Shown here: piece after piece, positions 3,299 to 34,294 of the stretch | Position numbering within the stretch: position 1 is the first letter of the stretch | Layout: the number at the start of each line of letters is the position of its first letter | From: Gemmatimonadota bacterium | GTDB taxonomy: Bacteria; Latescibacterota; UBA2968; UBA8231 | Length of the DNA stretch: 64,000 bases | Direction: 5' to 3' | NCBI GenBank assembly: GCA_028875345.1 | Contig: JAPPEG010000041.1 | Span: 874-64,873, forward strand | Notes under the pieces: generated by a model | Seen by the model: the letters and a program-made list of their open reading frames with translations, nothing else | What the model was told of the DNA's origin: nothing | The model's database searches: none | Translations under genes and position numbers: made by a program

Positions 3299-3386
3299 TT
3301 CTAACAAATTCCTACATTTAGGCGCTTTTGGAACCCCCCATAATTCAAACTGTACCAAAGTTGGTCGCGAGCCAAGGAGTCCGTAT

Positions 3387-4436
3387 ATGGCCGAAAAGAC
3401 GATCGGCATATTGACCGGAGGAGGCGACTGTCCAGGTCTCAATGCCGTCATTCGCGCTGTGGTGCGCAAGGGCATTACTGCGTACCGATATCGCTTTCGC
3501 GGCATTCTCAAGGGCTGGAAAGGAATGATGGAGTGCGACTGGGAGCCTTTGGGCCCGGAAGAAATTTCCGGCATTTTGCCCAAGGGCGGCACCATCCTCG
3601 GCACGTCGCGCACCAACCCGTTCAAAGAGGAAGATGGCGGTGAAATCGTCGTCGATAACATGCGACGGATGAAATTAGATGCCCTCGTGGCCATCGGTGG
3701 CGAGGACACACTCGGGGTTGCCAACAAACTGGCGAGTATGGGCGTGCCAGTCATAGGCGTGCCCAAGACCATCGACAACGATCTGAATGGCACGGACTAC
3801 ACGTTTGGTTTTGACACCGCAGTCAATATCGTCACCGAAGCCATCGACCGAATTCACACCACGGCTGAATCCCACAACCGAGTGATGGTCATTGAGGTCA
3901 TGGGGCGACACAGCGGTTGGATTGCCCTCTACGCTGGCTTGGCCGGTGGCGCGGATATGATCCTCATTCCCGAGCAGAAGTACACCATTCAGGAAATCGT
4001 CAGCACCATCCGCAAACGACACGAGCGCGGCAAGGACTTTTCGATCGTGGTCGTGGCCGAGGGGGCACAGGTCTCAGCGGAAGGCAAGGAGAACGAATAC
4101 GTGGTCTCCGAGGGAGGACTCGACGAATTCGGCCACGTCAAGCTGGGCGGCATCGGCCAACTCGTCGCCAACGCGGTCGAGGAGGCAACGAGCTACGAGA
4201 CGCGGGTTACGGTGCTGGGGCACTTGCAGCGCGGGGGGACGCCCACGGCCTTCGACCGCGTCTTGGGCACGCGCTTTGGCATTGCCGCCATCGACTTGGT
4301 GCACGCCGGCGATTTCGGCAAGATGGTGAGTCTGCAAGGCAATGAAATCGTGGCGATCCCACTGGCCGACGCGGTCAATCAGCTCAAGATAGTTGACCAA
4401 GAGCTATACGATTTAGCGACGGTATTCTTCGGTTGA
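3387..4436 (+). CDS. pfkA: 6-phosphofructokinase (family A; ATP- or PPi-dependent not decidable)
   Basis: 349 aa with motifs GILTGGGDCPGLNAVIR, AIGGEDTLG and GVPKTIDNDL. Confidence 0.9.
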   Translation: MAEKTIGILTGGGDCPGLNAVIRAVVRKGITAYRYRFRGILKGWKGMMECDWEPLGPEEISGILPKGGTILGTSRTNPFKEEDGGEIVVDNMRRMKLDALVAIGGEDTLGVANKLASMGVPVIGVPKTIDNDLNGTDYTFGFDTAVNIVTEAIDRIHTTAESHNRVMVIEVMGRHSGWIALYAGLAGGADMILIPEQKYTIQEIVSTIRKRHERGKDFSIVVVAEGAQVSAEGKENEYVVSEGGLDEFGHVKLGGIGQLVANAVEEATSYETRVTVLGHLQRGGTPTAFDRVLGTRFGIAAIDLVHAGDFGKMVSLQGNEIVAIPLADAVNQLKIVDQELYDLATVFFG

Positions 4437-4440
4437 TAGC

Positions 4441-5646
4441 ATGGCTAAGCGCACCATCAGAGACCTCGATGTCGCTGGCAAGCGGATCCTCGTGCGAGTG
4501 GATTTCAACGTGCCGCTCGACGACGAGGACGGCCGAATCGTCGATGACACGCGGATTCGCGCAGCCCTGCCAACGGTTGAGCACTTGTTGACGCAGGGCG
4601 CGTCTGTCATTCTGATGTCGCACTTGGGCCGCCCTCGCGGCCAGCGAGTACCCGCGCTGTCGCTGGCTCCGGTAGCCGAGCGCCTGAGCCAGTTGTTGGG
4701 ACGCGCGGTGGGCATGGCTCCAGACTGCGTCGGTGCCGAGGTCGCAGCCCAAGCCGCTGTCTTGCAGCCAGGGCAAGTCCTGCTTTTGGAGAATGTGCGC
4801 TTCCACCCGGAAGAAGAGCAAAACGAGCAGACTTTTGCCCAGCAGTTGGCCGGCCTGGGCGATGCCTACGTCAACGACGCCTTTGGAGCGGCGCACCGGG
4901 CCCACGCTTCGACCGAGGGGGTGCCGCGCTGTATGGGCGCGGGGGCCAGCGGCCTGTTGATGGAGCAAGAAATTTCCTATCTCGACGAAGCCCTGCGCCG
5001 TCCGCAGCGGCCATTTATCGCCGTTTTGGGCGGGGCTAAGATCTCGGGCAAGATTGAGCTGATTGAGCACTTGCTCGACCGGGTGGATGCCCTGCTCATC
5101 GGCGGCGGCATGGCCTATACCTTTTTCAAGGCCATGGGGCTAGAGATCGGGGATTCGCTGCTCGAAGAGGACCGCCTAAATACGGCCCAGCAGCTATTGA
5201 CCCGAGTCGAAACGGGGGGATTGGACCTCCAGCTTCCCGTGGATTGCGTGGTCGCCGACCGCTTTGCCGCCGATGCCCAAGCGCAAGTAGTCGCCCGCGA
5301 CGCCATCCCTCGCGGTTGGCAGGGCATGGATATCGGTCCCCAGACCCGGCAGTGCTACGCCGACCAGATCGCCCGCGGGGGCACCATAGTGTGGAATGGT
5401 CCCCTCGGAGTGTGCGAGATGGCACCCTTTGCCCAGGGAACTCAACAGATCGTCCAAGCCCTAGCTGCCGCCACCTGCGAGGGTGCGTTGAGCATTATTG
5501 GTGGTGGGGACACAGCCGCGGCTGTAGCCCAAGCCGGATTGGCCCAAGCGATGACTCATATTTCCACTGGGGGTGGGGCTTCGCTGGAGTGCATGAGCGG
5601 GCGGGTCTTGCCCGGGGTAACGGCCTTGGATGACGAGGAAAGCTGA
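4441..5646 (+). CDS. pgk: phosphoglycerate kinase
   Basis: 401 aa. N-terminus RILVRVDFNVPLD, with a full-length PGK-like sequence. Sits directly upstream of tpiA. Confidence 0.95.
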   Translation: MAKRTIRDLDVAGKRILVRVDFNVPLDDEDGRIVDDTRIRAALPTVEHLLTQGASVILMSHLGRPRGQRVPALSLAPVAERLSQLLGRAVGMAPDCVGAEVAAQAAVLQPGQVLLLENVRFHPEEEQNEQTFAQQLAGLGDAYVNDAFGAAHRAHASTEGVPRCMGAGASGLLMEQEISYLDEALRRPQRPFIAVLGGAKISGKIELIEHLLDRVDALLIGGGMAYTFFKAMGLEIGDSLLEEDRLNTAQQLLTRVETGGLDLQLPVDCVVADRFAADAQAQVVARDAIPRGWQGMDIGPQTRQCYADQIARGGTIVWNGPLGVCEMAPFAQGTQQIVQALAAATCEGALSIIGGGDTAAAVAQAGLAQAMTHISTGGGASLECMSGRVLPGVTALDDEES

Positions 5647-7587: not shown

Positions 7588-10500
7588 ATGGCTTCGGCTG
7601 GTTTCGTCCATTTACACGGTCACAGCGAATACAGCCTGCTCGATGGAGCTTGTCGGATTGGCGAGATGGCCGAGTTGGCGGCCGAGCAGGGCATGCCCGC
7701 CTTGGCTATCACAGATCACGGCAACCTCTTCGGCGTCATCGAGCACTACAAGACCTGCCAAGACGCTGGCATTAAGCCCATCATCGGCTGCGAAGTTTAT
7801 GTGGCGATTGATAGCCGCCACTCGCGCCAAGCCGCCCGCGGCCTAACTCACGCCTCCAACCACCTGGTTTTACTGGCCAAAGACGCCACCGGCTACCGCA
7901 ATCTGACCAAGCTCGTCTCCAAGGGCTATCTCGAAGGTTATTACTACAATCCCCGCATAGACAAGGAACTTTTGCGCGAACACGCCGAGGGCCTGATTTG
8001 CATGTCGGCCTGCATCGGCGGCGAGATTCCACATCTGATCCAGCGCGAGGGGCTAGCCACAGCCGAAAAGGTCGCCCGCGAGTTTATGGACATCTTCGGC
8101 GATGACTACTATTTGGAGATCCAGCGCCACGACATCGACCCTGAAGCCAAGGTGAACGATGGCCTGCTCAAGCTGCATCGCAAGCTAGGGGTGCCGCTGG
8201 TGGCCACTAACGATTTCCACTTCCTGCGCGCCACCGACCACGACGCCCACGACGCCCTGATTTGCATTCAGACAAACAAGACGGTTGACGAGAAAAATCG
8301 CCTGTGCTATCCCGACGGACTCTACATGAAGAGTCCCGACGAGATGCGAACGCTGTTTGCGGATTTGCCCGATGCGCTGGAGCGCACTCTCGAAATTGCC
8401 GACAAGTGCAATGTCGAACTCGAGTTCGGAAAAACCTATATGCCGGATTTTCCGATCCCGACTGGCTACGCCTCCAGCGACGACTATCTGACGCAACTGG
8501 CGCAGGAGGGTTTGGAGAGGCGCTACGGCACCGTCGATCCGGCAGTGCAAGAGCGGCTTGACTACGAGCTAAGCGTCATCACCAGCCAGGATTTTTCCGG
8601 CTATTTCCTCATCGTATGGGACCTTGTCAACTACGCCCGTAATCAGGGCATTTCCGTGGGGCCGGGTCGCGGCTCGGCCGCTGGCTGCTTGGCCTCGTAT
8701 TGCCTCGGCATTACCAATGTAGATCCCATCAAGTACGACCTGATCTTCGAGCGCTTTCTCAATCCCGAACGCATTGAGCCACCTGATATCGATGTCGATT
8801 TTGACGACACCCGGCGCGACGAGGTGCTGCGCTATGTGGTGGATAAGTACGGCAAGGATAACGTCTCGCGGGTCATCACGTTTGGGACTATGGGAGCTAA
8901 AGCGGTGGTGCGCGATGTCGGACGGGTTTTGGGCATGCCCTTTGGCGAGGTGGATCGCATCGCCAAGCAGGTGCCGACCGAACTAAAAATTACTCTCGAC
9001 AAGGCCATCGAGCGGGTGCCCGAGCTACAGCAGCTAGCCCAAATGCCCGGCAACGAGGGCAAGCTGGTCGAGTACGCTCGCAAGCTGGAGGGCATGGCGC
9101 GTCACGCCTCGGTCCACGCCTGCGCGGTCATCATCGCTCCTGGCGAACTGACCAACTACGTGCCGCTCTATCGCGCTCCCAAAGACGGGACTATAACCAC
9201 CCAGTTCGTCGGCGAGACCTGCATGGACATCGGTTTGCTGAAGATGGACATCTTGGGTTTGAAGGAGTTGTCGCTGGTCGATGAGGCTGTGCGCTTGATT
9301 CAACTCAAGGAGCCGGGCTTTAATTTGGAAACCATCCCGTGGGACGATCGAGCTACTTTCGATCTTTTCGGACGTGGCGAGACGATCGGCGTTTTCCAAT
9401 TTGAATCCGCGGGAATGCGCGAATACCTGAGCAAGCTCAAGCCGGATACCATCGAAGACATTATCGCCATGAACGCCCTCTATCGCCCGGGGCCGATGGA
9501 CAATATCCCGACCTTCATCGCCCGCAAGCGCGGTGAAGAGGCCGTCTCTTACGATCACCCCAAGTTGGAGTCGATTTTGGAGCCGACCTATGGAATTATG
9601 GTCTATCAGGAGCAGGTCATGCGCATCGCCCAAGAACTGGCCGGTTTCACCCTCGGCCAAGCCGATATTTTGCGCAAGGCGATGGGCAAGAAAAAGCCCG
9701 AGGAAATGGCCAAGGTCAAAAAGGATTTTGTCGGCGGCTGCGTTGCAAACGGGGTGGAAAAATCATTGGCCAATAAGCTGTTCGGCGAAATCGAGATTTT
9801 TGCCGGCTACGCCTTCAACAAGTCGCACTCGGTTTGCTATGCCGAAGGTGCATACAAAAACGCGTATCTCAAGGCCAATTATCCTCAAGAGTACATGGCC
9901 GCTAGCCTGACCATTGAGCGCAGCAACACCGACCGGCTGACCGTCTTGCTAGACGACTGTCGCCGCATGGGCATCCCCGTCCTGCCGCCCGATGTCAACC
10001 GGAGTACGCTCAACTTCACGCCGACGGACGAGGGCATTCGCTACGGCTTGGCGGCGATCAAGAACGCCGGCGAGGGCGCAGTGCAGAGCATGGTCGATAC
10101 GCGGATTGCAGACGGGCCGTTTACCACTCTCTTTGAGTTCTGCGAGCGCATTGATTTGCGCGCGGTCAACCGGCGCGTGGTCGAGAGTCTGATTGCTGCT
10201 GGCGCATTGGACAGCCTTGAAGGCCATCGCGCACAGAAAATGGAAGCGCTAGAGCTGGCGTTAAAGGCTGCGGGTAAGGCCCAGGAAGACCGCGAAAAGG
10301 GGCAGATTAGCCTCTTCGACGGAGGCGACTCGTCCGAGTTAGTGGTGCAGGACCTACCCGAGGTCGAGGAGTGGGCCGAGCGCGAGAAGCTGGCCAAGGA
10401 ACGCGACCTGTTGGGCCTCTATATCTCCAGCCATCCACTCAAGCCCTACGCCCGAGATCTCAAAAACTTCGCGCGACCCCTAAGCGAGATAGATGGGCAA

Positions 10501-11058
10501 CTCGACGGTGCGCGGCTACGAGTCGGCGGCCTAGTCGAGGAGGTGCGCAAGCTCTTTGATCGCCGAGGCAATCCCTTTGCCTTTGTCACGCTCAAAGACC
10601 TCAATGACACGGGCGACATCGCTTTTTTCGCCGAAGTTTTCGCCCGCCACCAACAGCTACTCGTAGAAGGCGAAACCATCCTCGTAGAGGGCCGCGTTTG
10701 CGAACGCAACGGACGCCTGAGTTTACAGGCCGACAGCGCGCTGCCCCTCAAATCGGCGCGAGCGGAACTGACCGAGTCGGTCACTTTGTCGCTGCCCTAC
10801 CATAAAGTGGGCGACCCCCTGCTCAGGCGGTTGCGCCAACTGTGCGAGCGCTACACGGGCGATTGCGAGTTGTGGCTCCGGCTCCAAAACGGCGGCGAGC
10901 AGGACAAGATGGTGCGCTCAAAGACCATTCGCGTCAATCCCTGCGACGATTTGCTGATCGGTATTGAGGAACAGATCGGCCCCCATTCCATCCGGCTGCA
11001 GCCTAAAAGGCAAATAGCCGTGCCCTCCTCGGCTACTCCAATTAAGTACAGAACGTAA
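7588..11058 (+). CDS. dnaE: DNA polymerase III subunit alpha
   Basis: ~1156 aa. PHP-domain N-terminus FVHLHGHSEYSLLDG with a full-length DnaE-like sequence. GGAGG lies 5 nt upstream of the ATG at 7588. Confidence 0.95.
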   Translation: MASAGFVHLHGHSEYSLLDGACRIGEMAELAAEQGMPALAITDHGNLFGVIEHYKTCQDAGIKPIIGCEVYVAIDSRHSRQAARGLTHASNHLVLLAKDATGYRNLTKLVSKGYLEGYYYNPRIDKELLREHAEGLICMSACIGGEIPHLIQREGLATAEKVAREFMDIFGDDYYLEIQRHDIDPEAKVNDGLLKLHRKLGVPLVATNDFHFLRATDHDAHDALICIQTNKTVDEKNRLCYPDGLYMKSPDEMRTLFADLPDALERTLEIADKCNVELEFGKTYMPDFPIPTGYASSDDYLTQLAQEGLERRYGTVDPAVQERLDYELSVITSQDFSGYFLIVWDLVNYARNQGISVGPGRGSAAGCLASYCLGITNVDPIKYDLIFERFLNPERIEPPDIDVDFDDTRRDEVLRYVVDKYGKDNVSRVITFGTMGAKAVVRDVGRVLGMPFGEVDRIAKQVPTELKITLDKAIERVPELQQLAQMPGNEGKLVEYARKLEGMARHASVHACAVIIAPGELTNYVPLYRAPKDGTITTQFVGETCMDIGLLKMDILGLKELSLVDEAVRLIQLKEPGFNLETIPWDDRATFDLFGRGETIGVFQFESAGMREYLSKLKPDTIEDIIAMNALYRPGPMDNIPTFIARKRGEEAVSYDHPKLESILEPTYGIMVYQEQVMRIAQELAGFTLGQADILRKAMGKKKPEEMAKVKKDFVGGCVANGVEKSLANKLFGEIEIFAGYAFNKSHSVCYAEGAYKNAYLKANYPQEYMAASLTIERSNTDRLTVLLDDCRRMGIPVLPPDVNRSTLNFTPTDEGIRYGLAAIKNAGEGAVQSMVDTRIADGPFTTLFEFCERIDLRAVNRRVVESLIAAGALDSLEGHRAQKMEALELALKAAGKAQEDREKGQISLFDGGDSSELVVQDLPEVEEWAEREKLAKERDLLGLYISSHPLKPYARDLKNFARPLSEIDGQLDGARLRVGGLVEEVRKLFDRRGNPFAFVTLKDLNDTGDIAFFAEVFARHQQLLVEGETILVEGRVCERNGRLSLQADSALPLKSARAELTESVTLSLPYHKVGDPLLRRLRQLCERYTGDCELWLRLQNGGEQDKMVRSKTIRVNPCDDLLIGIEEQIGPHSIRLQPKRQIAVPSSATPIKYRT

Positions 11059-23178: not shown

Positions 23179-23799
23179 TCACCATATGAAAGCACTGTAC
23201 AGCAGGGCCATACTCCCCGCGCCCAGCGCACCGCCCGCGCCGATCTGCATGGGGGTATGCGCCCCCAAATAAAGCCGCGCCCAAGCGACGGCCGGCCAAC
23301 TGAGTAAGAAGGGCCACGCCGCGCTACCGACGCTGATCAACAATACGCAGGTTGCCCCTCCGACACCAGCCGCGTGAATGCTGATCTTATAGAAGCGATT
23401 GATCGACCAGACCAAGAGCGTATTGACGACACAGGACGCGGCCGTGACCAGCATTAGGGGAGGGGCTCCGATCCCGTAGAGGGCTGCTCCTCCTAGGGTG
23501 TAGCAACAAGCGCCCAGCAAGAGCAAGGTAGCGCGTTTGTTGCGGTCGTCTGTATAGGCTTTGTCCAGATACCCCGAGCGCACAAAGTGCCAGAGAAGCA
23601 ACCCGGGGACCACAGAGAAGGCACCGACCGCCACTGAGCCGGCGAGCCAGTCGCCTAGCACGTGCGCTTGAACGCCGAAGACCAACAGCGCCAACAGCGC
23701 GGGATTGAGCAAGTGCGAAAGGAAGCATGCGGCTCGGTGCGGATGCAGACTAAAAAAGGGACGAGCTAATTGCTCGCCCCTCGTTATTTCTTTTGCCAT
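23179..23799 (-). CDS. polytopic membrane protein, PAP2-superfamily-like (motifs partly degenerate)
   Basis: 206 aa. KISIHAAG (compare PSGH) and ARLYLGAHTPMQIGAG (compare SRxxxxxHxxxD, with D replaced by Q). Confidence 0.5.
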   Translation of the reverse strand: MAKEITRGEQLARPFFSLHPHRAACFLSHLLNPALLALLVFGVQAHVLGDWLAGSVAVGAFSVVPGLLLWHFVRSGYLDKAYTDDRNKRATLLLLGACCYTLGGAALYGIGAPPLMLVTAASCVVNTLLVWSINRFYKISIHAAGVGGATCVLLISVGSAAWPFLLSWPAVAWARLYLGAHTPMQIGAGGALGAGSMALLYSAFIW

Positions 23800-24215
23800 T
23801 TTTTTCCGCTGGCCGCGCCGCGACTAGGTGGCCTCTTATCACCCTCTAGCACGAAGCCGATAAAGCGCTTTTGTCCAAGGGTCTTCAAATACTGGAGCAG
23901 GGAGACCTCGGCCTCCTTGCGATTGAGCTGGTATTTGTCGCTGAGCTCTTCGATCATATTGCCGACTGAGTTGCGGCCATTGCACATCCGCCAGACCTCG
24001 CTGCCGACCTCGTCGAGGGTGATTTTGCGCTGTTTGGGGATGTAGAAAAACTTGGACAGCAGCCGCACCCTCCAGGTCTCTTGGCGCGTTATGAAGACCT
24101 GGATCTCGCCGTTGTCGTTGTTTTCCCAGCGCAGAGACTCATTGCGCGTTGGCCGCGACGCCAGCATGGCGACCCGGCTTAGCTTGGGTCCCTTGTTTTT
24201 CGATAAAATGCCCAT
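23784..24215 (-). CDS. PqqD-family (RiPP-recognition-element-like) small protein
   Basis: 143 aa. The core LDEVGSEVWRMCNGRNSVGNMIEELSDKYQLNRKEAEVSLLQYLKTLGQKRFI matches the PqqD winged-helix pattern. An AAGG lies 6 nt upstream of the ATG at 24215. An alternative start is at 24167. Confidence 0.65.
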   Translation of the reverse strand: MGILSKNKGPKLSRVAMLASRPTRNESLRWENNDNGEIQVFITRQETWRVRLLSKFFYIPKQRKITLDEVGSEVWRMCNGRNSVGNMIEELSDKYQLNRKEAEVSLLQYLKTLGQKRFIGFVLEGDKRPPSRGAASGKKWQKK

Positions 24216-25131
24216 CTACTACCTTGGCGACTAGCTCGTCTGCTGCGTCTTTCTTGCGGTAGAGGTGCTCGATGATTGCGATTTTGTCGATGCTGGTATC
24301 GCGCCAGACGCGCCCCCGCATATATAGGCGCGGCCTCGGGTTTATAAAGGGCAGAGGACGCAGTAGCTGACGCCAGCGGCTGCGCGGTCGTCCCTCAACG
24401 CGAATGCCCTCGTGTTCCCGCACGGCTTCTGGAGTAATATCCACCACGAAGTCGCGCAATTGCTTCTTAAAAAAAACCGGATACCAGTCTTGGATGGGCG
24501 CGTCTTTGAGCATAATCCGGGCCATGCTCAACCGATGCACCTTTAAAACTTGTTTGCCGAGGGAAAACTCGAGCTCGATGTGGCCCGACTTGAGGGAATG
24601 GCTTTGTAGCTTGAGGTCGCTGGGTGCAAAAAACCGCAAGCCGTACACGCTCCACAGATGCGCGTCCTCAGCTTCTTGATCGACGAGCGAGCTGAACACG
24701 GCCTCGGCTTGCTCGGGCAAAAACTCGTCTAGCTTGGCCAGCACTCGCAGGAGCACTACCCGCCCGGATCCCAAGGCGAGCGCTAGATTGTATGCGCGGA
24801 AGTCGGCCTCCCAGATGAAGACCTCGTATTCGCGGCCTTCGAGGAACTTCTTGTTTTTGAGGAAGCGAGCGCGGCGCTGGACCTCAAAGGGAGCATCGAC
24901 CTTTTGGGCCTTCTTTTGCAGATTGGCCAAGTAGCGATCTACCAACTCGGTCAGGCGCAGGGCCTCGCCGCGGCCTTTGAGCCGCCGCCATTCGATTTCA
25001 GCACGCACGATTTCGGCGTCGTCGAGGCGGGCATAGCCCTTTTCAAAGTCCCCGTCAACTCGGCCGAGGTTCCAATCGTCGGGCACGGACATCCGCAGCC
25101 CTTGCCAAGCGAAGTCCACCCAGTCGCTCAT
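24139..25131 (-). CDS. hypothetical soluble protein, Cys-free, internally duplicated
   Basis: 330 aa, with the start 1 nt after the upstream stop. Two related modules: FAWQGLRMSVPDDWNL... and WSVYGLRFFAPSDLKL... No family recognised. Confidence 0.7.
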   Translation of the reverse strand: MSDWVDFAWQGLRMSVPDDWNLGRVDGDFEKGYARLDDAEIVRAEIEWRRLKGRGEALRLTELVDRYLANLQKKAQKVDAPFEVQRRARFLKNKKFLEGREYEVFIWEADFRAYNLALALGSGRVVLLRVLAKLDEFLPEQAEAVFSSLVDQEAEDAHLWSVYGLRFFAPSDLKLQSHSLKSGHIELEFSLGKQVLKVHRLSMARIMLKDAPIQDWYPVFFKKQLRDFVVDITPEAVREHEGIRVEGRPRSRWRQLLRPLPFINPRPRLYMRGRVWRDTSIDKIAIIEHLYRKKDAADELVAKVVDGHFIEKQGTQAKPGRHAGVAANAQ

Positions 25132-25132
25132 G

Positions 25133-27559
25133 CTAGAAGATCAACACGGAGACCGATTTCTGGATCAGGGCGATCCCCACCGACGCCATACCCATCAACG
25201 CCATACCGCAAGCGAAGCCCACCGCCAGAACCGGGGCAAACAGCCGCCATTCCTGCCGCCCGTACTTGTTCCAAAAGTAGTAGCGAGCCAAGAGCGCACC
25301 GATGATCTCGGTGACGACCAAGTGCGGCAGAATCGTCAGCGAGCGCACGAACCCAAAGATCAACAAGATCGGTAGCCCGAGTATGGATAGCAGAATGAAG
25401 CTCACCAGCCCGAAGCCGGCCCCAAAGGCGATGACTTCTAGTTTCAGCGCCCTAAAGAGCCAAGGCACGTCGGTGGAGCGCTGGATCCAAGAGCTGGTAA
25501 AGAGCGGATCGGTATCGACCTCAAAGTAGAAGGACCATCCGGCCGGTACAGCTCGCTCGGTCTGCACTTCGAGGGTTGGGCGGGGTTCGCGAATGACGGT
25601 GTCCATAGCTGGCCCCAGTGGCGCAATCGCCGGCAGGCCCTCGACCACTTCCTCTTCGGCTAGCTGCTCGTCGCGCAGGTAGCGCTCGGCGACTATGTCG
25701 GGTGCCCCTTGCTCGAAGTACGAGTAGAAAACTTGGGTCGGCATCCACGGGCCGACTTGGCCGCGCTTGCCGTTGGAGTCCAGCCACTCCTGATCCACTA
25801 GCCGCACCCGCCAGTACCACCACTCGTTTTCGATCAGGTTTGCCGGAGTCCATCCCGCTTGATCTTTGTCTATGGCCAGTTCGCTGCGCATGGTGCCGGT
25901 GATAAAGAGACATTGCTGGTAAGCGCGCAGACGCCACATGAGCTGGGCATAGGGGTAAGAGGCCGACGGGATCGGTGCTAGTTTCCAGATATAGGAGCCG
26001 TAGAGAAAACTGGTAAAGAGCACGATGGGTACCATGAAAATCTCGGCGCGGATGATGCTGGTAAACTGGGTGCCGGTCAATTCGATTTCGCGGAACTTCT
26101 GGGTCTGGGCACCGTAGTTGCCCAAGGGAAACGGAATGAACCAGATGTCAACACCGCGATACCCAGAAAGAATAATCGTGGCCTCGCGCACGAAGGGAAC
26201 GTCCACCGTCTGCCCTACCATCCCGACTAGGCGAGCGTTGACGAAGGACTGAAAGGGCGTGAATACGAAACCAAAGAAGAGGAAGAACCATATAAATTGG
26301 GCAATGCCCGGCAGCAGCCAAGCGGCGATGCCGATCAGGCCGGCCGTGGCCAAGGCGTATAGTGCCAACGCCACCCAGATGGGGAAATCGCCGCGGCCAG
26401 CGGGGGTGGCGAAGCCGCGCTTGGGACTGCCATCATTCCCGTTGCCCTTGTTAGCCCTAGCCCTGCGCACGCTCTGAACTATCTGGTAGATGCCGATGGC
26501 GGCGATGGCAAAGGTAGTGCCGAGGCCGAAGCTCATCCAGAAATCGACGTAGTTGACGAAATAGGTCTCGATCGTGCCCATGCCTTGCTGCCACAAGTTC
26601 AGGTACGGCTCCTCGCGCCACGAAGGCGTCCAGGTATAGAGCAGCGGATTGGCAACGGCGGCGGCGACTAGACCGATGAAGGTGCCAACCACGCCCCAGA
26701 ACGGCACCACTAGACCGACGAAGATCGGCCCCAAGTGCGCGGTAAATCCCAGCGGAGTGGCCGGGATAAAGTTGCCGGTAACTTGCGTGAAGTCGACAAA
26801 GGGAATGGGTATGAGTTGGATCGGCTCGGTCAGCAGCGCGCCAGTAATCGCCGGTAGGGCCACGTAGATCGTGCCAAAGACCAAGCCGATCATCGCCCCT
26901 GCCGAGAATACCCGCCAGCGCCACGTCTCAAGTCCTTGGGTAGTTTCGGCCAGTGCCGTAGCACCTTGGGCGTTTACGGGCGCGAAGGGAAAGGGCAGGC
27001 GCTCGTAGTCGGAGCTGAGCCGGAAGAGCGCGTACGACATAGTGAACCAGTTGATGCGCGAGATGATCATCCCCAAGACTAGGAGTACGATCGGCATCGC
27101 CCAATCCGAGTGCAGGAAGGTGCGCTCAATGACGGCGAGAGAGTCGGGTTGGGGTGCCACCCAAGTGGGAATCAGCTTGGTGATGCCGAACTGCTTGGCC
27201 GCTGGCGATTGCACCAAGTACTGGTTGTAGAGCAAGCCCTCAAAGGCACCGGTTTCAGCGGCAATCAGCGAGCCGGCCACGTAGAACAGCACATAGACTT
27301 CTTGGCGCCGGAGGGAGGAGAAGGAACGCTTGGTGATTTCGGCGAAGAGGATGATGGTCACCCACTCGGCCGCCGCCCCCAAAGAGCCGCCGATCATCAG
27401 GCTCAAGTACATGTTGCCCGGCACCATGATGAAGGCGACGAAGAACACGCCGAGGATGGCCTTGATCGTAAAGCCGTTCTCGAAGCGGTCCGGGACCTGC
27501 ATTAAATCCCGATATTCTTCGATCTCTCGGTTCGGGTTTCTGTTTTTGCTTCCGAGCAC
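25133..27559 (-). CDS. large polytopic membrane protein (808 aa), OPT-superfamily-like
   Basis: GTG start preceded by GGGAGG. Many hydrophobic segments. The N-terminus FTIKAILGVFFVAFIMVPGNMYLSLMIGGSLGAAAEW resembles oligopeptide-transporter (OPT) N-termini. A ~170-aa soluble insert lies near the C-terminus. Confidence 0.75.
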   Translation of the reverse strand: MLGSKNRNPNREIEEYRDLMQVPDRFENGFTIKAILGVFFVAFIMVPGNMYLSLMIGGSLGAAAEWVTIILFAEITKRSFSSLRRQEVYVLFYVAGSLIAAETGAFEGLLYNQYLVQSPAAKQFGITKLIPTWVAPQPDSLAVIERTFLHSDWAMPIVLLVLGMIISRINWFTMSYALFRLSSDYERLPFPFAPVNAQGATALAETTQGLETWRWRVFSAGAMIGLVFGTIYVALPAITGALLTEPIQLIPIPFVDFTQVTGNFIPATPLGFTAHLGPIFVGLVVPFWGVVGTFIGLVAAAVANPLLYTWTPSWREEPYLNLWQQGMGTIETYFVNYVDFWMSFGLGTTFAIAAIGIYQIVQSVRRARANKGNGNDGSPKRGFATPAGRGDFPIWVALALYALATAGLIGIAAWLLPGIAQFIWFFLFFGFVFTPFQSFVNARLVGMVGQTVDVPFVREATIILSGYRGVDIWFIPFPLGNYGAQTQKFREIELTGTQFTSIIRAEIFMVPIVLFTSFLYGSYIWKLAPIPSASYPYAQLMWRLRAYQQCLFITGTMRSELAIDKDQAGWTPANLIENEWWYWRVRLVDQEWLDSNGKRGQVGPWMPTQVFYSYFEQGAPDIVAERYLRDEQLAEEEVVEGLPAIAPLGPAMDTVIREPRPTLEVQTERAVPAGWSFYFEVDTDPLFTSSWIQRSTDVPWLFRALKLEVIAFGAGFGLVSFILLSILGLPILLIFGFVRSLTILPHLVVTEIIGALLARYYFWNKYGRQEWRLFAPVLAVGFACGMALMGMASVGIALIQKSVSVLIF

Positions 27560-27572
27560 TCGCTATCCTCCC

Positions 27573-30500
27573 TTACGCCGAAACTTCGCTGCGCAGCCCT
27601 TGCAGAATTTCCGCGCCCTGTTGGCGGTAGCCTTCTTTGGCCTCGGCATCCACCGTGCGCCAGATGAGGAACTGTTTGCGGATGACGTTCATAAAGCGCT
27701 GGTTGACCCTCCGCCACGAGGCGTCCTCGCCGCTGAGTCGCTTGATTTGTAGGCTGACTGCGTAAATGTTGTGCTCGGCCTCTGGCATGGCCCGCACGGT
27801 GACGTGTTGGCTGACGCCCAAGTCGAACGGAGCCAGCCAGATATTCATGTCGATAATGTATCCTTCGCCGTTGGGCGTTTCTTCGCGGCTTAGCTGGGCA
27901 CCGTCGGTGTAGAAGGTGCCGATGGACTCCTCGCTGTAGGAGTCGAAGTAGCCGATGAGGAATACGCTCAAGCCCAAGACCTCGTGACCGCTGACTGTAA
28001 AGGGGAACTCGAAGTCCCACTGGTCGCCGTCGGGCGGCGGCAGCTTCCACTTGCGGGTCACGTCCGGCACGGCCATTTGCGAAGCCTTGCGCGCCGGATA
28101 AATCGTCGAGAGCATGACCACGGCCATCACTAGCATACAGGAGAGCACCGCGGCCACCGAAGAGTAGTTGAGCGTGAAGCCACCCAAAAGGTCAAATTCT
28201 ATGAGTACTTTGGCGATTACTTGGCCGCTGAGATAACCGGCGACTACGCCCAGTACCGAATAGACGCAACTCTCGGCGATAAAGAGCCAAGAGATGTGGC
28301 CGGGGGCTAGGCCCACCGAAGAGTAGATGCCGATTTCGCGGAAGCGCTCGTACACACTACCCATCATGGTGTTGAGCACAATCAGCGAGGCGATCAGCAT
28401 GGGGATGAACAAATTGCTCATCCCGGAAAAGGAGGTCATGCCCAGCGATGAGTAGATCGACACCTTGATGTATTCATCGCCGACCTCCTTGACTCCGGCG
28501 AACAGCGTCACCGCGAGGCGCGAGAGGAACTCCTCGACCTCGCCGCGCACATCGCTGCCCTCGGGGAAGCGCACGGCTACCGACTGTAGTGGGTTGCCGC
28601 TGCCGACGTTGCGCAGCGTGTGGTAGGGAATAATCAGGGTGTTGGCTGGCTCTATGTGGACGAAGGGTTTGATGACGACCTTGGCATCCTCCAGTCCCTG
28701 CTTTTCGCGCTGTTCTTCCTCGGCTATTTCCTGCACCGCCTGACCGCCGGTGACGGCGAAGTCGGCTGGCGTCAGAATCTCATCGTCGAGGTCTTTGAGG
28801 TCCTTCATGCGCTTAGAGTCGATGACGCCCACCACCGTAAACAAGTCGCCGAAGACCCTGACTTGCGCTTGACCAACGTCGGCCAAATCGACATCGAGAT
28901 GGGCTTCCTTGACCATGTCGATGGGCAGGATGCAGGCCTTGTCCTCACCCGGTTCGAACCAGCGTCCGGCGACTAGGGCTTGGTTGAGTCGAGTGACTAG
29001 AGTCTCCTCGGGCGCTAAACCTAGGACGCCGAGCGCGTTATGGGCCTTTTCCCCGTGTTTTATTTTAATGTGCGCTTTGGCCTTGTTGCTGTACCAACTG
29101 CGCGGCGCGACCGCAGCCCGATCGCCGAAATTGCTGCGGGCGTATTCGAGGACTGAATCCTCCATTGGATTCCACGCCTTGCTGCGGATGAGGATGCCCT
29201 CGTAGAGACCCTCGTTGTCGCGGCTGATTTGATTGAACCGCAAGCCCGTGCGGATGGAGGTAAAAGAGAGCACTGTGAACGTCAGCAGCAAGAGCGTGGT
29301 AAAGGTGAGGACCGTGCGCGTCTTGCGCCGTTTCATGTTGGAAATCCCGAGCTGGAAGGCCGTCAGCGAGGCCGAAGAGCGGCTGACATCCGTGTCGTGG
29401 ATCACGGCTACCTCGGTGCGCAGCTTCTTCATCTGCTCGTTAAAGCGGCCGGAGATGATCGACATCACTAGCACTGCCAAGGCGATGATGATAAAGGCCA
29501 GCAGGATGACGAAGGGATTGGATAGCTGAAAGGCCGGATGCACCAGCCACAACACGATCCAGATCGCCAGAAAAACCCCGGCAAAGCCGATTATCTGATT
29601 GCGGATCGTGGCGGCCGTAAAAATGAGCCGCTCAGTGAAAAAGGCGCAGGGGATGACGAGGGCCATGAAGAAGATAATGCCCTGAATGACGTCGTTTTGA
29701 GTGGATTTGACGTCTGGATAGGCGCGCGATTCCAGCCCGAAGGCCGCACGCGTGTGGCGCACGAAATCGCCCCAGCGCTGATCGGTCTCAGCCGCGGCGG
29801 CTTGGGCCAGCTCGGTTTCGGCGCGATAGTGGAGGTCGTTGAGGCGCTGGTTTTCAATGGCAAAGCTCCGCAACTCGCGCATTCGCGACTCGTCGAGATT
29901 CCACATGTCTTGGGCGGCTTGGAAGGTCGTGCGGGCAAAGGAAGTACCGGGGCGAATCTCAAAGCCCTCGCCCTCGGCTTTTTCCTTGTCGGTTACGCTG
30001 GTGGCGTTGAGCAGGAGCGAGCGGAATCCCAGCAGGCCAGCACCGAACCCCATCTTGATGTGCGAACCGGGCCGTGCGAAGAGCACCCCGACCGGCTCGT
30101 TTTGGGCCGAGGGGCCTTCGCCGATGGTATAACCGTACTCCACAGGTGGGCCGTTCGTTTCGTCGAAGACCTGCACGTTGGACAGCTTGGTCAAATAGCG
30201 CGGATCGACGATGTCGAAGAAGTTGTAGGGCACACAGGGAAAGAGGATGACCATCCACTGCTTGTCGCGCCAATCCATGGAGACCCGCATGGGGTAGCTT
30301 TCGTCGCCTTGCACGCCGCGGTCGGGGGCGTAGGTGATGCGGCCGGTGATCGGGTCCATGTAGTAGCCCTCGATCTGCACGTTGTTGACCCGCACCCGAT
30401 TTACGTAAAAGGCCCCCTTATCATCGACGACTTCGTAGTACTCGCCGCGCACGCCTTTATACGACTTTTTCTTACCGTTGCGCACCACGGCTACGGCGTC

Positions 30501-32324
30501 TGCACGCGGCAAGTCGGGGATGATGCTGCGGCGCGGAAAGACCATGGTCCGACCACGCAGCGAGCGCAGCGTGTCGCGCAAGCGCATCTTGAAGTCCGGG
30601 AACAGCTCTGGGTCTTCAAAGGCCATCTCGAACATGCCGGCGAGCACCCGGATCTGTTTGGCGAGATTGGCGTAGTTGACGTGCTCAGCCCGGTCTAAGG
30701 GCGTATCGACGAGGAATCGCGCGTCGTTGACAGTGACAAAGGCCAATGCCGGCGTACCAGTCGCCAATACCAATTCGCTGTTGACCGATATTTCGCCTGG
30801 TACAAAAGTCTGCCAACTCATCCCGCCTTCGGGGCTGATACCATTGACTAGCACGTCGCGCTGCTGATAATCCAACTCGCGGCTGATCTTGCGCGCATAC
30901 CCCATGAAGTTCTTGCCGAAGGGCGCGAAGTAGCGCTTGTAGTAAAAGCTGGTATTGCTATTCCACACTCCGAGTTCGTCGGTTTGCGACGAAAGGTCGA
31001 GGCTGATAAAGAGCTTGACCGCGAGCGAATCGACTTTGGGATCGACCCAAGTTTTGTAGAGCGCGTGGCGCAAGTCGTCGTCCGAGCGCAAGTCGTCAAC
31101 CAGTTCGCGGCGATCTTTGAATTGCTCGTCGGCGAGGTGTAATGCGCCTCCTTCTTGGCTCAGCAGCCCTTCGGCAAGGGCAGCGTCGGCAACGCGCGAG
31201 ACCAAGTCGGTGTGCCCTTCGGCAACGCCCCGCACGAGGGCTTCCTTACTGGTGAACTCCTCCTCGCCGATGGCGTAGTGGATGCCGTCTTGGGCGATCA
31301 TGTTCCGCGCGAGTGCAGCATCGACGACCCGCCTCACCAGCATGTGCTCGATAAAGGGATCCTCTTTGCGCAAATAGCGTTGGATGAAATCATCAATCCC
31401 GCGCAAGCCCAAGTGGTGGGCCGAAGTGGCGAGAAATACGACCGTGCGCGCCGGTGGATTTTCGCGGAAGTAGCGCGCCAGTTCCAACAGCGCAGTAATG
31501 CCGGAGGCTTGCTCGGCACCTGGGGCGAGGGCCGGCACGACTGACATGGCGTCGTAGTACGCTTCCAGCACGATCACGTCCTCTTTTAGCAAGGGATCGT
31601 ATCCGGGGATCGTGCCGAGGATATTCCAGGCGGGACGCCGCTCCCAATCCATGCGGTACTGTAGGTGGAGCGTCTGCTCGCCCTCGGTCGCCAATTGGCG
31701 GCGCAAGCGCTGACCGACTTGGCGATTGACCCAAAACCTCGGCAGGTCGAGCGGCATGGTGAGGAACTTCTTTTCGCCCTCCAAGTACACGGTGGAGTCC
31801 GGCTCGATAAAGATGATAGCTTGCGCCCCGAGGTAGGCGGCATTGAGCCAGGCGTCGCCCGAATTGAAGTCCATCAGGGCCACAGCCCCTTCGACTTGCT
31901 TGCCGTCCATGTCTGCGTACTCACCCGCGCCAGCGTCGATCAAGCGCTTGGTCACCCCGTCTTCGGGCAGCGTCGAGGTTTTGACGAGGTTGGGCCACAG
32001 GCCGTGGATTGGCACTTGCTCGTCGCTGCCAACGACTTGCAGAAATCCGCCCTTATCGACCGGAATAGAGACATCGTATTCGTGTACTGTGACGTCGTCG
32101 AGGCCGATGGCACGGAAGCGCTCCTGCACGATCTGGGCCGCTTGGTCGGCACCTCGATAGCCGGCGACTCTAGACCCCAAGCCGGCAAAGGTGTCCATCG
32201 TTTGCTGCACGCGCTCGACCGGGGCCGTGCGCGCCAACTCGGCAAAATCGACTTCGGTCCAAGCCGGTGCTACGCCGACCAGAATCCAGCCGAAGGCTAT
32301 CCATCGCATCGCGAACTTAGGCAT
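27573..32324 (-). CDS. 1583-aa fusion protein: signal/anchor + PA/M28-like pseudo-peptidase ectodomain + 3 TM + FtsX/MacB-type permease + C-terminal domain
   Basis: ORF 27573..32504 is trimmed to the ATG at 32324 (MPKFAMRWIAFGWILVGVAPAW); the longer form overlaps the upstream gene. M28-like motifs have substituted ligands: EAYYDAMS, PGAEQASGITALLELAR, FLATSAHHLGLRG. FtsX hallmarks are ISNMKRRKTRTVLTF (TM1) and FREIGIYSSVGLAPGHISWLFIAES. Confidence 0.8.
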   Translation of the reverse strand: MPKFAMRWIAFGWILVGVAPAWTEVDFAELARTAPVERVQQTMDTFAGLGSRVAGYRGADQAAQIVQERFRAIGLDDVTVHEYDVSIPVDKGGFLQVVGSDEQVPIHGLWPNLVKTSTLPEDGVTKRLIDAGAGEYADMDGKQVEGAVALMDFNSGDAWLNAAYLGAQAIIFIEPDSTVYLEGEKKFLTMPLDLPRFWVNRQVGQRLRRQLATEGEQTLHLQYRMDWERRPAWNILGTIPGYDPLLKEDVIVLEAYYDAMSVVPALAPGAEQASGITALLELARYFRENPPARTVVFLATSAHHLGLRGIDDFIQRYLRKEDPFIEHMLVRRVVDAALARNMIAQDGIHYAIGEEEFTSKEALVRGVAEGHTDLVSRVADAALAEGLLSQEGGALHLADEQFKDRRELVDDLRSDDDLRHALYKTWVDPKVDSLAVKLFISLDLSSQTDELGVWNSNTSFYYKRYFAPFGKNFMGYARKISRELDYQQRDVLVNGISPEGGMSWQTFVPGEISVNSELVLATGTPALAFVTVNDARFLVDTPLDRAEHVNYANLAKQIRVLAGMFEMAFEDPELFPDFKMRLRDTLRSLRGRTMVFPRRSIIPDLPRADAVAVVRNGKKKSYKGVRGEYYEVVDDKGAFYVNRVRVNNVQIEGYYMDPITGRITYAPDRGVQGDESYPMRVSMDWRDKQWMVILFPCVPYNFFDIVDPRYLTKLSNVQVFDETNGPPVEYGYTIGEGPSAQNEPVGVLFARPGSHIKMGFGAGLLGFRSLLLNATSVTDKEKAEGEGFEIRPGTSFARTTFQAAQDMWNLDESRMRELRSFAIENQRLNDLHYRAETELAQAAAAETDQRWGDFVRHTRAAFGLESRAYPDVKSTQNDVIQGIIFFMALVIPCAFFTERLIFTAATIRNQIIGFAGVFLAIWIVLWLVHPAFQLSNPFVILLAFIIIALAVLVMSIISGRFNEQMKKLRTEVAVIHDTDVSRSSASLTAFQLGISNMKRRKTRTVLTFTTLLLLTFTVLSFTSIRTGLRFNQISRDNEGLYEGILIRSKAWNPMEDSVLEYARSNFGDRAAVAPRSWYSNKAKAHIKIKHGEKAHNALGVLGLAPEETLVTRLNQALVAGRWFEPGEDKACILPIDMVKEAHLDVDLADVGQAQVRVFGDLFTVVGVIDSKRMKDLKDLDDEILTPADFAVTGGQAVQEIAEEEQREKQGLEDAKVVIKPFVHIEPANTLIIPYHTLRNVGSGNPLQSVAVRFPEGSDVRGEVEEFLSRLAVTLFAGVKEVGDEYIKVSIYSSLGMTSFSGMSNLFIPMLIASLIVLNTMMGSVYERFREIGIYSSVGLAPGHISWLFIAESCVYSVLGVVAGYLSGQVIAKVLIEFDLLGGFTLNYSSVAAVLSCMLVMAVVMLSTIYPARKASQMAVPDVTRKWKLPPPDGDQWDFEFPFTVSGHEVLGLSVFLIGYFDSYSEESIGTFYTDGAQLSREETPNGEGYIIDMNIWLAPFDLGVSQHVTVRAMPEAEHNIYAVSLQIKRLSGEDASWRRVNQRFMNVIRKQFLIWRTVDAEAKEGYRQQGAEILQGLRSEVSA

Positions 32325-32338
32325 AGTTAGTGCCTTTC

Positions 32339-34294
32339 TCAGATCCAGAAGACCACATTGTCGGTCATGCCCGTAAAAAAGTCGATAATCAACCAGAGCC
32401 CCGCGATGAAAAACTGGCCTATGATTAAGCCTAAAAAGAAAGGACGCGCCCGGCGAAAAAGACCAGGACCGCCGTATTTCATCGCCAACAACTTTAAGAG
32501 CCAAGCGATGGCAATGCTAAACCATAACTGGTCCATCAGCCATACGGCACCAATCGGGTAGCCGATGGGATGCAGAGGCCACCACAAGAGCCGCTGGCGT
32601 GCCCACATGAGCAGGGCCATGATGCCCCCGCCGACAAAAGTGTGAATCCAGCCATCGATATTCGGCTCGGTGGGTGCGCTTAACTTGGTGGTAATATAAT
32701 CAAAAGGGGCACGAGTTCCACCTCCAAAAAACCACGGGTTGAGGTTGATGCCGCCGTATTCGTAGGCGAGGTACAAAATCGTCGCGACCGAGCCGACGAT
32801 GCTAACAACAATCGCCAGCAGTATGTACCAAAAAAGCGGGCGCAGCCGCGGCCCTAGTCCCTCACCCAACTTGAGACCGTGTGCGCAGGAGGCCATGACA
32901 AAGGTGCGGATATCCGCCGCCCACACGAATGTGTATGCGAGGCCGACTATGCCGGCCGGGCCGATCGCCGAAGAGCCTACGGCCGAAACCAGGACCGTTG
33001 GAGAAATCATCGGCCCGACCGCCGCGGCCACGCCTCCTTCTACTACCACTCGAGTTAGGCCGACGAAGATAAGGATGGCCAGCATCAGGGTCAAAAAGGC
33101 CGCCCACAGCGGCAAGCCAGACTGCCACAGCCAGATGGTCATTACTGCGATGCCGGAGAGCCAAGTTAAGACCGCTACCCGATAGGAGAGCATCTCGCCG
33201 CTGTCGTCGATGCGGTTGTCGCCCCGGAATGCCTTGCGCAGCACGTCGCGCAGGTGCTCGCGGCCGACCCACAGGCCGAAGGCCACTAGGACGATCATCG
33301 CGCCCTGTCCCTGATGGGCGAGGATCGGCTCGCTAGCAGCGCCGTAAACGAGCTTTTCAGTGCTGCCAACCCCTAAAACTCCCAGCCCTCCTCGGATCAA
33401 CTTGGCGATGGTGTTGAAAAACCACAGGCTGAAGGCGATGTCGAGGTTGATCAGATACGCGAACCCGATCATGGGAAAGCTCAGGCGGAAAATCAGGCTG
33501 ACGGTGTTGCGCAGGATCGGAATCGAAGAGACGAGCTGGATGGCGGGGATGAAGTTGAAGTACGCGTGTAGGGCGTTGAAACTACTGACGAGTACGGGCA
33601 GGGCAAAGCCGACCCACATGATTGGATTTTTGAAGAAAGGGCCTAGGGCTTCTCCGCGGCCTCCGCTCTGCACCATGGCCAGGGGCACTTGCACCAGCGG
33701 ATAAACTAGCCGCTCTCGCTCTACCCACTGGCGGCGCATAATGACCATAGACGAGATCATCACCAAGTACAGGGCTACAATCAGAATGGCCCAATAGCAC
33801 AGCGGGCCGCTCCAGGCGGCCCAGGGCACCCCAGTGGTGCGCGGCGCTCCTTCGTAAAACCACTTGATCGCTTCGGGATCCTGCGGGGCGATCCACTCGG
33901 GAAGGTGCGGCAGGATGAGCAAGGCCCACTCGTTTTCCGGGGTGGCGTAGTACTGGGCACCGGTGATGATCGTCAGCCAGTACTCACTGAGGCCCATCGT
34001 GGGGATGGCCGAGGCCGTGAGCATCATAATGTACGCGACGATAAGCTCGCAACGCCCGAGGGCCACAGGAGCGGCGAAGCGCGTCAGCAAGGCATTGAAC
34101 AAGCCCGTTAGCAAGAAGAAGAGAAACAGGGCACCCGCTGCGCTGAAATCAATCGACATGTAGGAGCCGCGGATGACCATGTTGCCGTACGGTGCTCCCA
34201 CGGCGATGCACAGCGACCCTAGGGTGCCCGCCACCAGCGCTTTGGCGCTGAAGACCGGCTTGGTTTGCAAAGTAGGCTTTTGGGGCAAGTCCAT
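32339..34294 (-). CDS. large polytopic membrane protein (651 aa), OPT-superfamily-like; distant paralogue of the 808-aa protein
   Basis: Strongly hydrophobic throughout. N-terminus FSAKALVAGTLGSLCIAVGAPYGNMVIRGS. The C-terminus LLKLLAMKYGGPGLFRRARPFFLGLIIG resembles the C-terminus of the 808-aa protein. Confidence 0.75.
   Translation of the reverse strand: MDLPQKPTLQTKPVFSAKALVAGTLGSLCIAVGAPYGNMVIRGSYMSIDFSAAGALFLFFLLTGLFNALLTRFAAPVALGRCELIVAYIMMLTASAIPTMGLSEYWLTIITGAQYYATPENEWALLILPHLPEWIAPQDPEAIKWFYEGAPRTTGVPWAAWSGPLCYWAILIVALYLVMISSMVIMRRQWVERERLVYPLVQVPLAMVQSGGRGEALGPFFKNPIMWVGFALPVLVSSFNALHAYFNFIPAIQLVSSIPILRNTVSLIFRLSFPMIGFAYLINLDIAFSLWFFNTIAKLIRGGLGVLGVGSTEKLVYGAASEPILAHQGQGAMIVLVAFGLWVGREHLRDVLRKAFRGDNRIDDSGEMLSYRVAVLTWLSGIAVMTIWLWQSGLPLWAAFLTLMLAILIFVGLTRVVVEGGVAAAVGPMISPTVLVSAVGSSAIGPAGIVGLAYTFVWAADIRTFVMASCAHGLKLGEGLGPRLRPLFWYILLAIVVSIVGSVATILYLAYEYGGINLNPWFFGGGTRAPFDYITTKLSAPTEPNIDGWIHTFVGGGIMALLMWARQRLLWWPLHPIGYPIGAVWLMDQLWFSIAIAWLLKLLAMKYGGPGLFRRARPFFLGLIIGQFFIAGLWLIIDFFTGMTDNVVFWI

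Follow-up and report, generated by a model that had tools for sequence, protein, structure and literature searches.

The window analysed here is a 64,000-nucleotide (nt) stretch of a Latescibacterota genome (assembly GCA_028875345.1, contig JAPPEG010000041.1, positions 874 to 64,873 of the forward strand), within which two overlapping genes on the minus strand encode a small PqqD-like protein of 143 amino acids (aa; 23784..24215) and a soluble protein of 330 aa, here called P330 (24139..25131). An earlier note, made from the letters of this DNA without database searches, had singled out the pair as a PqqD-like protein overlapping an internally duplicated partner, with no enzyme or precursor for a RiPP (a peptide made on the ribosome and modified after translation) in the operon, and had suggested that its RiPP recognition element (RRE) might bind a peptide for transport rather than for modification. 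The follow-up described below, which combined profile and structure searches with a survey of the same genes across the phylum and beyond, leads us to place the pair, with some reservation, in a widespread envelope machine built around FtsX-type permeases and an ATP-binding cassette (ABC) ATPase.

The PqqD winged-helix signature read by eye in the 143-aa open reading frame (ORF) was borne out, and by its sequence the ORF is a true PqqD/RRE-family protein. It matches PF05402 over residues 65-119 (Pfam; E 1.2e-10, 41.9 bits against a cut-off of 23.4), this being the sole PF05402 match in the whole 5.03-Mb genome (87% complete), and the same domain is present in 120 of 120 PqqD-like homologues among the matches listed. 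When a profile of the subfamily was compared with the PDB it matched TbiB1 (5v1u, E 1.1e-5), a lasso chaperone (9x90, E 1.2e-5), PqqD (5sxy, E 3.5e-5) and 3g2b (E 1.5e-4). The named NCBIfam models for RiPP chaperones gave only weak matches to the ORF, all far under their cut-offs, namely 29.5 against 46 bits for the PQQ protein PqqD (TIGR03859), 30.7 against 80 bits for the lasso model (NF033536), 29.7 against 100 bits for GeoRSP (TIGR04302) and 13.9 against 100 bits for ScmD (TIGR04248). The protein has no transmembrane (TM) segment and is strongly basic (29 Lys plus Arg, 15 Asp plus Glu), with basic tails at both the N- and C-terminus, and its most conserved residues (L67, D68, G71 and W75; K100, E103, L106 and L110) fall within the part of the alignment that corresponds to beta3-alpha3 in solved RREs.

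Many databases start the PqqD-like gene at an internal Met, giving a product of 127 aa. Since the N-terminal ‘K.ISREAML.SRP.RN’ is kept even in lineages where the P330 and PqqD genes do not overlap, the 143-aa start, and hence an out-of-frame overlap in which the last 77 nt of P330 are also the first 77 nt of the PqqD-like gene (24139..24215, minus strand), is the better reading, in agreement with the overlap reported previously. The arrangement suggests translational coupling, and an AAGG lies 6 nt ahead of the PqqD-like ATG at 24215. A programmed frameshift yielding a P330-PqqD fusion was also considered and rejected, there being no canonical slippery site in the 77-nt overlap.

P330 contains no Cys, as had been noted, and no TM-like segment, and it also has no N-terminal hydrophobic segment or signal peptide. 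Sequence searches placed it in no known family: no Pfam or NCBIfam match was found at E<=0.1, membership in the PsbP, DUF1795 or DcrB families included, and no PDB sequence match was better than E 1.1. The AlphaFold2 (AF2) model, built from 47 homologues (predicted local distance difference test score, pLDDT, 87; predicted TM-score, pTM, 0.82), contains a beta5-alpha-beta3/4-alpha topology twice. In a Foldseek search of the PDB with this model the top matches were two-domain immunity proteins of the type VI secretion system (T6SS), TplEi/Tli4 (E 2e-6), and PA3488, followed by PsbP (1v2b, TMt 0.64, where TMt is the TM-score normalised by target length), CyanoP and Mog1, then by the DUF1795 chaperones EagT6 and SciW, and lastly by Tsi3, Apa and MTC28; the Foldseek probability was 1.00 for PsbP, CyanoP, Mog1 and EagT6. 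The two halves had been called similar in the earlier note, and although BLASTP between them was not significant (E 0.32), hhalign of the N half against the C half over 60 family members gave 97% probability and E 4.5e-11 across 143 columns, which together with the repeated topology of the model upholds the claim. The predicted structure indicates that P330 is a tandem of PsbP/Mog1-like domains that arose by internal duplication, a scaffold that the earlier note had missed.

The absence of Cys calls for one correction, since on comparison with its relatives it is a derived, lineage-specific loss of this genus. Members of the wider family as a rule have CxxC...DH in their N half and WHC...CH in their C half, and the four motifs occur together in 62 of 118 Latescibacterota matches and in 82 of 135 cluster representatives. 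The motifs tend to vanish as half-specific pairs and, by hhalign, the Cys/His clusters occupy equivalent positions in both halves; they are probably two structural metal sites. The disordered, conserved C-tail of P330 (residues 312-330) was examined as a ligand for the RRE and rejected, as distant homologues stop right after ‘CH’ and are tailless; in the present lineage the tail is conserved because its coding stretch overlaps that of the conserved PqqD N-terminus.

Upstream of P330, at the 1-nt gap described before, the minus strand encodes M808, an 808-aa polytopic membrane protein with about ten TM-like segments (25133..27559). M808 has no Pfam match above cut-off, no significant PDB match and no significant BLASTP similarity to DUF6785; the OPT family (PF03169) matches only its C-terminal ~80 residues (E 0.018; 15.3 bits against a cut-off of 25.8), and a paralogue on contig C199 reaches 24.9 bits against the same model. 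Beyond it lie a giant permease of 1583 aa (27573..32324, minus strand), in which a Peptidase_M28-like ectodomain is joined to MacB_PCD (PF12704, 29 bits against a cut-off of 27) and FtsX (PF02687, E 3e-15) domains, and a membrane protein with DUF6785 and DUF6784 (32339..34294, minus strand; Pfam E 2.5e-123 and 4.5e-31). On the other side of the pair a weakly PAP2-like membrane protein (23179..23799, minus strand; Pfam PAP2 E 8e-4, below cut-off) overlaps the end of the PqqD-like gene by 16 nt, and recD2 comes next on the same strand. Because the PAP2-like gene and recD2 follow PqqD only in loci of the same family (L029-L031), they are best seen as a lineage-specific addition outside the conserved system. 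The junctions between the operon genes measure 1-24 nt.

For the giant FtsX permease no ABC ATPase is encoded within the window. This lack holds for the window and not for the genome, a point that the earlier note had missed: contig C346 (45054-46550) carries, side by side, an orthologue of a small FtsX protein (sFtsX, 233 aa, 57% identity) and one of the ABC ATPase (257 aa), so that a permease without its ATPase in the window is explained. The ATPase (C346:45777-46550) is 75-78% identical to its orthologues, against 54% for the next paralogue. These two genes sit at the extreme end of C346, after ORFs that by eye look glycosyltransferase-like. Conservation of the ATPase is unusually high, at 65-75% identity between Latescibacterota and Poribacteria, and the protein carries a conserved C-terminal extension of ~20 residues past the usual nucleotide-binding domain, ‘REDLEISVGTIEGE’ / ‘R.EDLEISVGTIEGE’, which on sequence grounds is a candidate docking peptide or RRE ligand. 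Another dispersed part of the system is probably the 92-aa protein with two hydrophobic helices encoded at C203:8437-8715 (minus strand), after a 714-aa ORF at 8705-10849, which is 45-49% identical (E 1e-10 to 1e-13) to a 62-76-aa ORF that precedes the tetratricopeptide repeat (TPR) gene in three other loci (L022, L023 and L032).

The operon proteins were mapped onto 20 loci across Latescibacterota. P330 is directly followed by PqqD in 14 of the 20, and M808 adjoins P330 in nine. The fullest order was found in the deep families represented by L014, L022, L023 and L032, where DUF6785, a 62-76-aa protein with two TM segments (2-TM), a TPR protein, the M28::FtsX permease, M808, P330, PqqD, sFtsX and the ABC ATPase follow one another (in L014 the order is visible only from the TPR protein onward, with no DUF6785 match within the stretch, and in L032 the ATPase is assigned by its position and size). 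The sFtsX of these families is a four-helix protein of 228 aa with almost no periplasmic domain (PF02687, E 1.5e-20), and their ATPase has 245-255 aa. The ATPase gene lies within the operon in L014, L022, L023, L034, L035 and L037, and DUF6785 belongs to the same operon in L022, L023, L030, L032 and L037. In Candidatus Poribacteria the order is M28::FtsX (2430 aa), a 63-aa protein, a 662-aa protein, P330, PqqD and ABC ATPase; 66 of 80 loci retain the stretch that begins with the 662-aa protein and ends with the ATPase, and 79 of 80 retain the step from P330 to PqqD. An unannotated 662-aa membrane protein takes the position of M808 in L035 and L037, the latter, from another lineage, reading FtsX giant, 662 aa, DUF6785, ABC, FtsX, ABC, P330, PqqD. 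One observation from genome G076 concerns M808, of which tandem copies (C76:481-2871 and 3111-5504; 66% and 69% identical to the window protein) lie directly upstream of P330.

P330 and PqqD are also found fused, in three metagenomic proteins of 450-452 aa that share 48-51% identity with one another. In L034 the fusion gene is followed by sFtsX and then by the ABC ATPase, and is preceded by a partial gene of 715 aa that, by its position, may be a counterpart of M808. In five genomes of genus g19 in family f2 (G033, G049, G053, G065 and G074) the P330 frame runs past a single in-frame TGA, leaving an open frame of 345-490 aa. P330 and PqqD could thus lie in one frame split by one stop in some of these genomes, where readthrough would recreate the fusion; chance is an equally possible explanation.

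The co-occurrence check proposed in the earlier note was carried out on 151 Latescibacterota genomes. P330 is present in 132, the PqqD-like protein in 130 and sFtsX in 130, each as a single copy, and M808 in 137, with paralogues. All four are missing from the 13 genomes (13/13) of family f10, except for one weak PqqD match in G032 (26% identity, E 3.4e-5), whilst the only genomes outside f10 that lack P330 or the PqqD-like protein are a few incomplete assemblies; a shared absence of this kind fits one functional unit. For the wider distribution of P330 a hidden Markov model search over 1.84 billion cluster representatives (E<=1e-3) recovered 1380 representatives, nearly all of 290-345 aa, including one labelled Planctomycetes. 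Candidatus Poribacteria, with 96 genomes, is another clade that carries P330 relatives.

As to RiPP biosynthesis, Pfam and NCBIfam scans of the window operon revealed no RiPP enzyme, no precursor was found, and with junctions of 1-24 nt the genes are packed too closely for a precursor ORF to fit between them, so that the earlier claim on this point stands. The same negative was obtained among the Pfam-scanned neighbours in 12 of the 20 phylum loci (in the other eight only the system's own proteins were mapped) and in the Pfam annotations of L034, L035 and L037, and 80 Poribacteria loci, covered by mapping just four query proteins without a Pfam scan, showed no maturase or precursor up to 3 kb from P330. 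Nor did the 87%-complete genome contain a match to the lasso B2 protease (PF13471). Its only match to a SPASM domain, of the radical-SAM maturase type, is at C249:47155-47355, inside a 375-aa ORF unlinked to the PqqD gene. Judged by its gene content, the locus is not a RiPP locus, and the two outcomes that the earlier note had named as fatal to its proposal, a profile search that failed to support a PqqD fold or an enzyme and precursor conserved beside the orthologues, were both looked for and neither was found.

The explanation that we favour, at rather better than even confidence, is that P330 and the PqqD-like protein form the cytoplasmic two-protein module of a conserved, undescribed type-VII-like (FtsX/MacB-type) ABC envelope machine, for which they would serve as a peptide-binding adaptor or chaperone. 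The other parts of the machine would be the giant pseudo-M28::MacB_PCD::FtsX permease, sFtsX, the ABC ATPase, M808 and the DUF6785/6784 protein, and gene order, the P330-PqqD fusion and co-occurrence point to the pair as putative subunits of the complex. The two proteins are envisaged as a cytoplasmic heterodimer docking on the ATPase/FtsX side, in which the RRE would hold an extended peptide segment on its conserved beta3/alpha3 face and the P330 pseudo-dimer of PsbP/Mog1/DUF1795-like domains would act as scaffold or chaperone. The ligand of the RRE might be a client peptide or protein, or the tail of a partner subunit, the C-terminal extension of the ATPase being one candidate, and the pair, acting either as substrate receptor or as regulator, would link this ligand with the ATPase/FtsX motor. 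The suggestion of transport rather than modification is partly supported, in that every lineage examined has the pair either inside an FtsX/ABC membrane system or together with one in the same genome, and in that no maturase or precursor was seen beside it; peptide binding and transport themselves we infer.

A more far-reaching version, tentative and on balance doubtful, concerns the RRE, a fold so far known solely for reading leader peptides on behalf of RiPP enzymes, and sees it as receiving clients on the cytoplasmic side for an envelope machine of a new class. PqqD would read a leader-like segment, P330 would hold an adjacent hydrophobic segment in the manner of Eag proteins, and the FtsX/ABC motor with M808 and DUF6785 would translocate, insert or extract the client. 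If true, this way of handling proteins or peptides would differ from Sec, Tat, Lol and PCAT-type exporters, and it would belong to the core functions of Latescibacterota, of Poribacteria and of several further phyla.

Several observations count against assigning the pair to the machine. In families f2 and f3 fumarase, lexA, nuo and TPR genes surround the isolated pair, and in f8/f14 P330 sits by itself between unrelated genes, so that in these families the link to the machine would be one of co-occurrence only; and co-occurrence is weak as independent evidence, because within the phylum it goes back to a single clade-level absence, that of f10. The net charge of the PqqD-like protein, about +14, is unlike that of classical PqqD, and binding to nucleic acid or membrane would fit it too. 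Lastly, in the AF2 model of the natural fusion P0366 (block alignment) the PqqD part, which folds as two strands, a short helix and three helices, has a pLDDT of 38-82, and owing to this low confidence the P330-PqqD interface cannot be read from the model.

Among the rival explanations the one with most in its favour, though we think it unlikely, is that the pair is needed for biogenesis only, the P330 pseudo-dimer shielding hydrophobic helices of the machine's membrane subunits (e.g. the small 2-TM protein or sFtsX) before insertion whilst the RRE grips an adjacent tail. It draws on the Foldseek matches to EagT6 and SciW, which bind the TM helices of effectors, on a tandem duplication that mimics the Eag homodimer, on the conserved 62-76-aa 2-TM protein of the deep-family operons with its homologue on C203, and on the separation of the pair from the membrane genes in many genomes. 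The Eag matches are weak, however (TMt 0.43-0.50; E 0.015-0.085), the best matches being immunity proteins and PsbP, and a fixed place between M808 and sFtsX/ABC together with translational coupling suggests a stable subunit. Those best matches raise in turn the idea that P330 is an immunity protein or antitoxin of the Tli4/Tli5 type, directed against a lipase-type effector, with the PqqD-like gene incidental, an idea already disfavoured and now scarcely credible. Tli4 and Tli5 are periplasmic, whereas P330 has neither signal peptide nor TM segment; no T6SS or effector genes were found nearby, the neighbours being membrane-transport genes; P330 belongs to the single-copy core genes, has PqqD as its fixed partner and is found fused to it; and, against the E of 2e-6 for TplEi/Tli4 and the match to PA3488, the TM-scores to Tli4 are low (0.33-0.41), the domain fold alone being common to both.

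The two remaining rivals turn on the RRE. A cryptic RiPP pathway, in which the PqqD-like protein would present a precursor encoded elsewhere to an enzyme of a new type (P330 itself or an unlinked protein) and the ABC system would export the product, we hold to be very unlikely. PF05402 and the weak matches to lasso, PQQ and GeoRSP PqqD chaperones speak for it, as do the SPASM-domain protein on C249, the Cys/His clusters of most P330 relatives, which could bind metal, and the fact that RiPP clusters commonly combine an RRE with an ABC exporter (PMC7470986). Yet the NCBIfam chaperone models stayed far below their cut-offs, the loci examined had no precursor or maturase beside the pair, the junctions in the window operon are too tight for a small ORF, the genome yielded no match to a lasso B2 protease, the fold of P330 is the non-enzymatic one of PsbP/Mog1, and its Cys/His clusters must be dispensable, given that this genus has lost them whilst the protein stays conserved; moreover the pair is a single-copy, near-universal core set rather than a patchy biosynthetic gene cluster. 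Similarly improbable is a regulatory role, with the PqqD-like protein a DNA- or RNA-binding winged helix-turn-helix (wHTH) protein and P330 its sensor partner controlling expression of the machine. An RRE does resemble a wHTH DNA-binding domain, and some ‘orphan’ PqqD-like proteins may regulate (PMC7470986); the protein is strongly basic with basic tails at both ends, and in f2/f3 the pair makes up a two-gene unit by itself, which in L026 and L027 neighbours lexA. Against this, the Pfam match is to PqqD and not to an HTH family, the highest conservation falls in the segment aligning to the peptide-binding beta3/alpha3 of RREs, the pair lies inside a transporter operon between structural genes and is translationally coupled in many phyla, and PqqD keeps with sFtsX when parted from P330, as in f8/f14, where it lies about 70-140 nt upstream of sFtsX.

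Compared with known systems, the domain families of the P330/PqqD machine are familiar, their combination is not. The PqqD-like protein shares with PqqD and lasso B1 (TbiB1) its place in PF05402, profile matches to 5v1u, 5sxy and 3g2b over beta3 and three helices, and a small, stand-alone, cytoplasmic form. It differs from them in its own N-terminal ‘SRPxRN...W’ motif, an extra beta2-beta3 segment and a strongly basic character, in having no precursor, radical-SAM enzyme, B2 protease or cyclase near its gene in the lineages examined, and in a fixed PsbP-like partner within an operon that encodes an FtsX/ABC machine. Each half of P330 resembles PsbP, Mog1p and DUF1795 proteins in its alpha/beta sandwich, the two-domain arrangement recalls Tli4/TplEi and the pseudo-dimer recalls Eag homodimers, whereas P330 has no Pfam match, is cytoplasmic, is unlinked to T6SS or photosystem genes, carries Cys/His clusters in most of its family and is paired with an RRE. 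With the type VII ABC systems MacAB, LolCDE and FtsEX the machine has in common its FtsX-fold permeases, one of which includes a periplasmic core domain of the MacB type, an ATPase that resembles LolD/MacB and has the usual motifs, and a heteromeric permease pair as in LolC/LolE; it is unlike them in that one permease bears a huge M28-like ectodomain and the other almost no periplasmic domain, and in the extra polytopic partners M808 and DUF6785/6784. We know of no described type VII system with two dedicated cytoplasmic accessory proteins like P330 and PqqD. In the library of papers searched, none was found that joins PqqD with FtsX or DUF1795 with PqqD, or that mentions DUF6785/DUF6784.

RRE/PqqD domains serve as a beacon in genome mining for peptide natural products. 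The family described here is a large, conserved class of RRE that does not mark RiPPs and would give systematic false positives in such mining; in the RRE-Finder paper PqqD-like proteins outside lasso clusters were recorded as unexplained false positives (PMC7470986). The analysis would also define two dedicated cytoplasmic subunits for an undescribed multi-phylum ABC/FtsX machine. That machine seems to be part of the basic outfit of entire uncultured phyla, since nearly all Latescibacterota have it in single copy and 96 Poribacteria genomes have it too, and the identity of the RRE ligand may offer the most direct route to the function of the machine as a whole.

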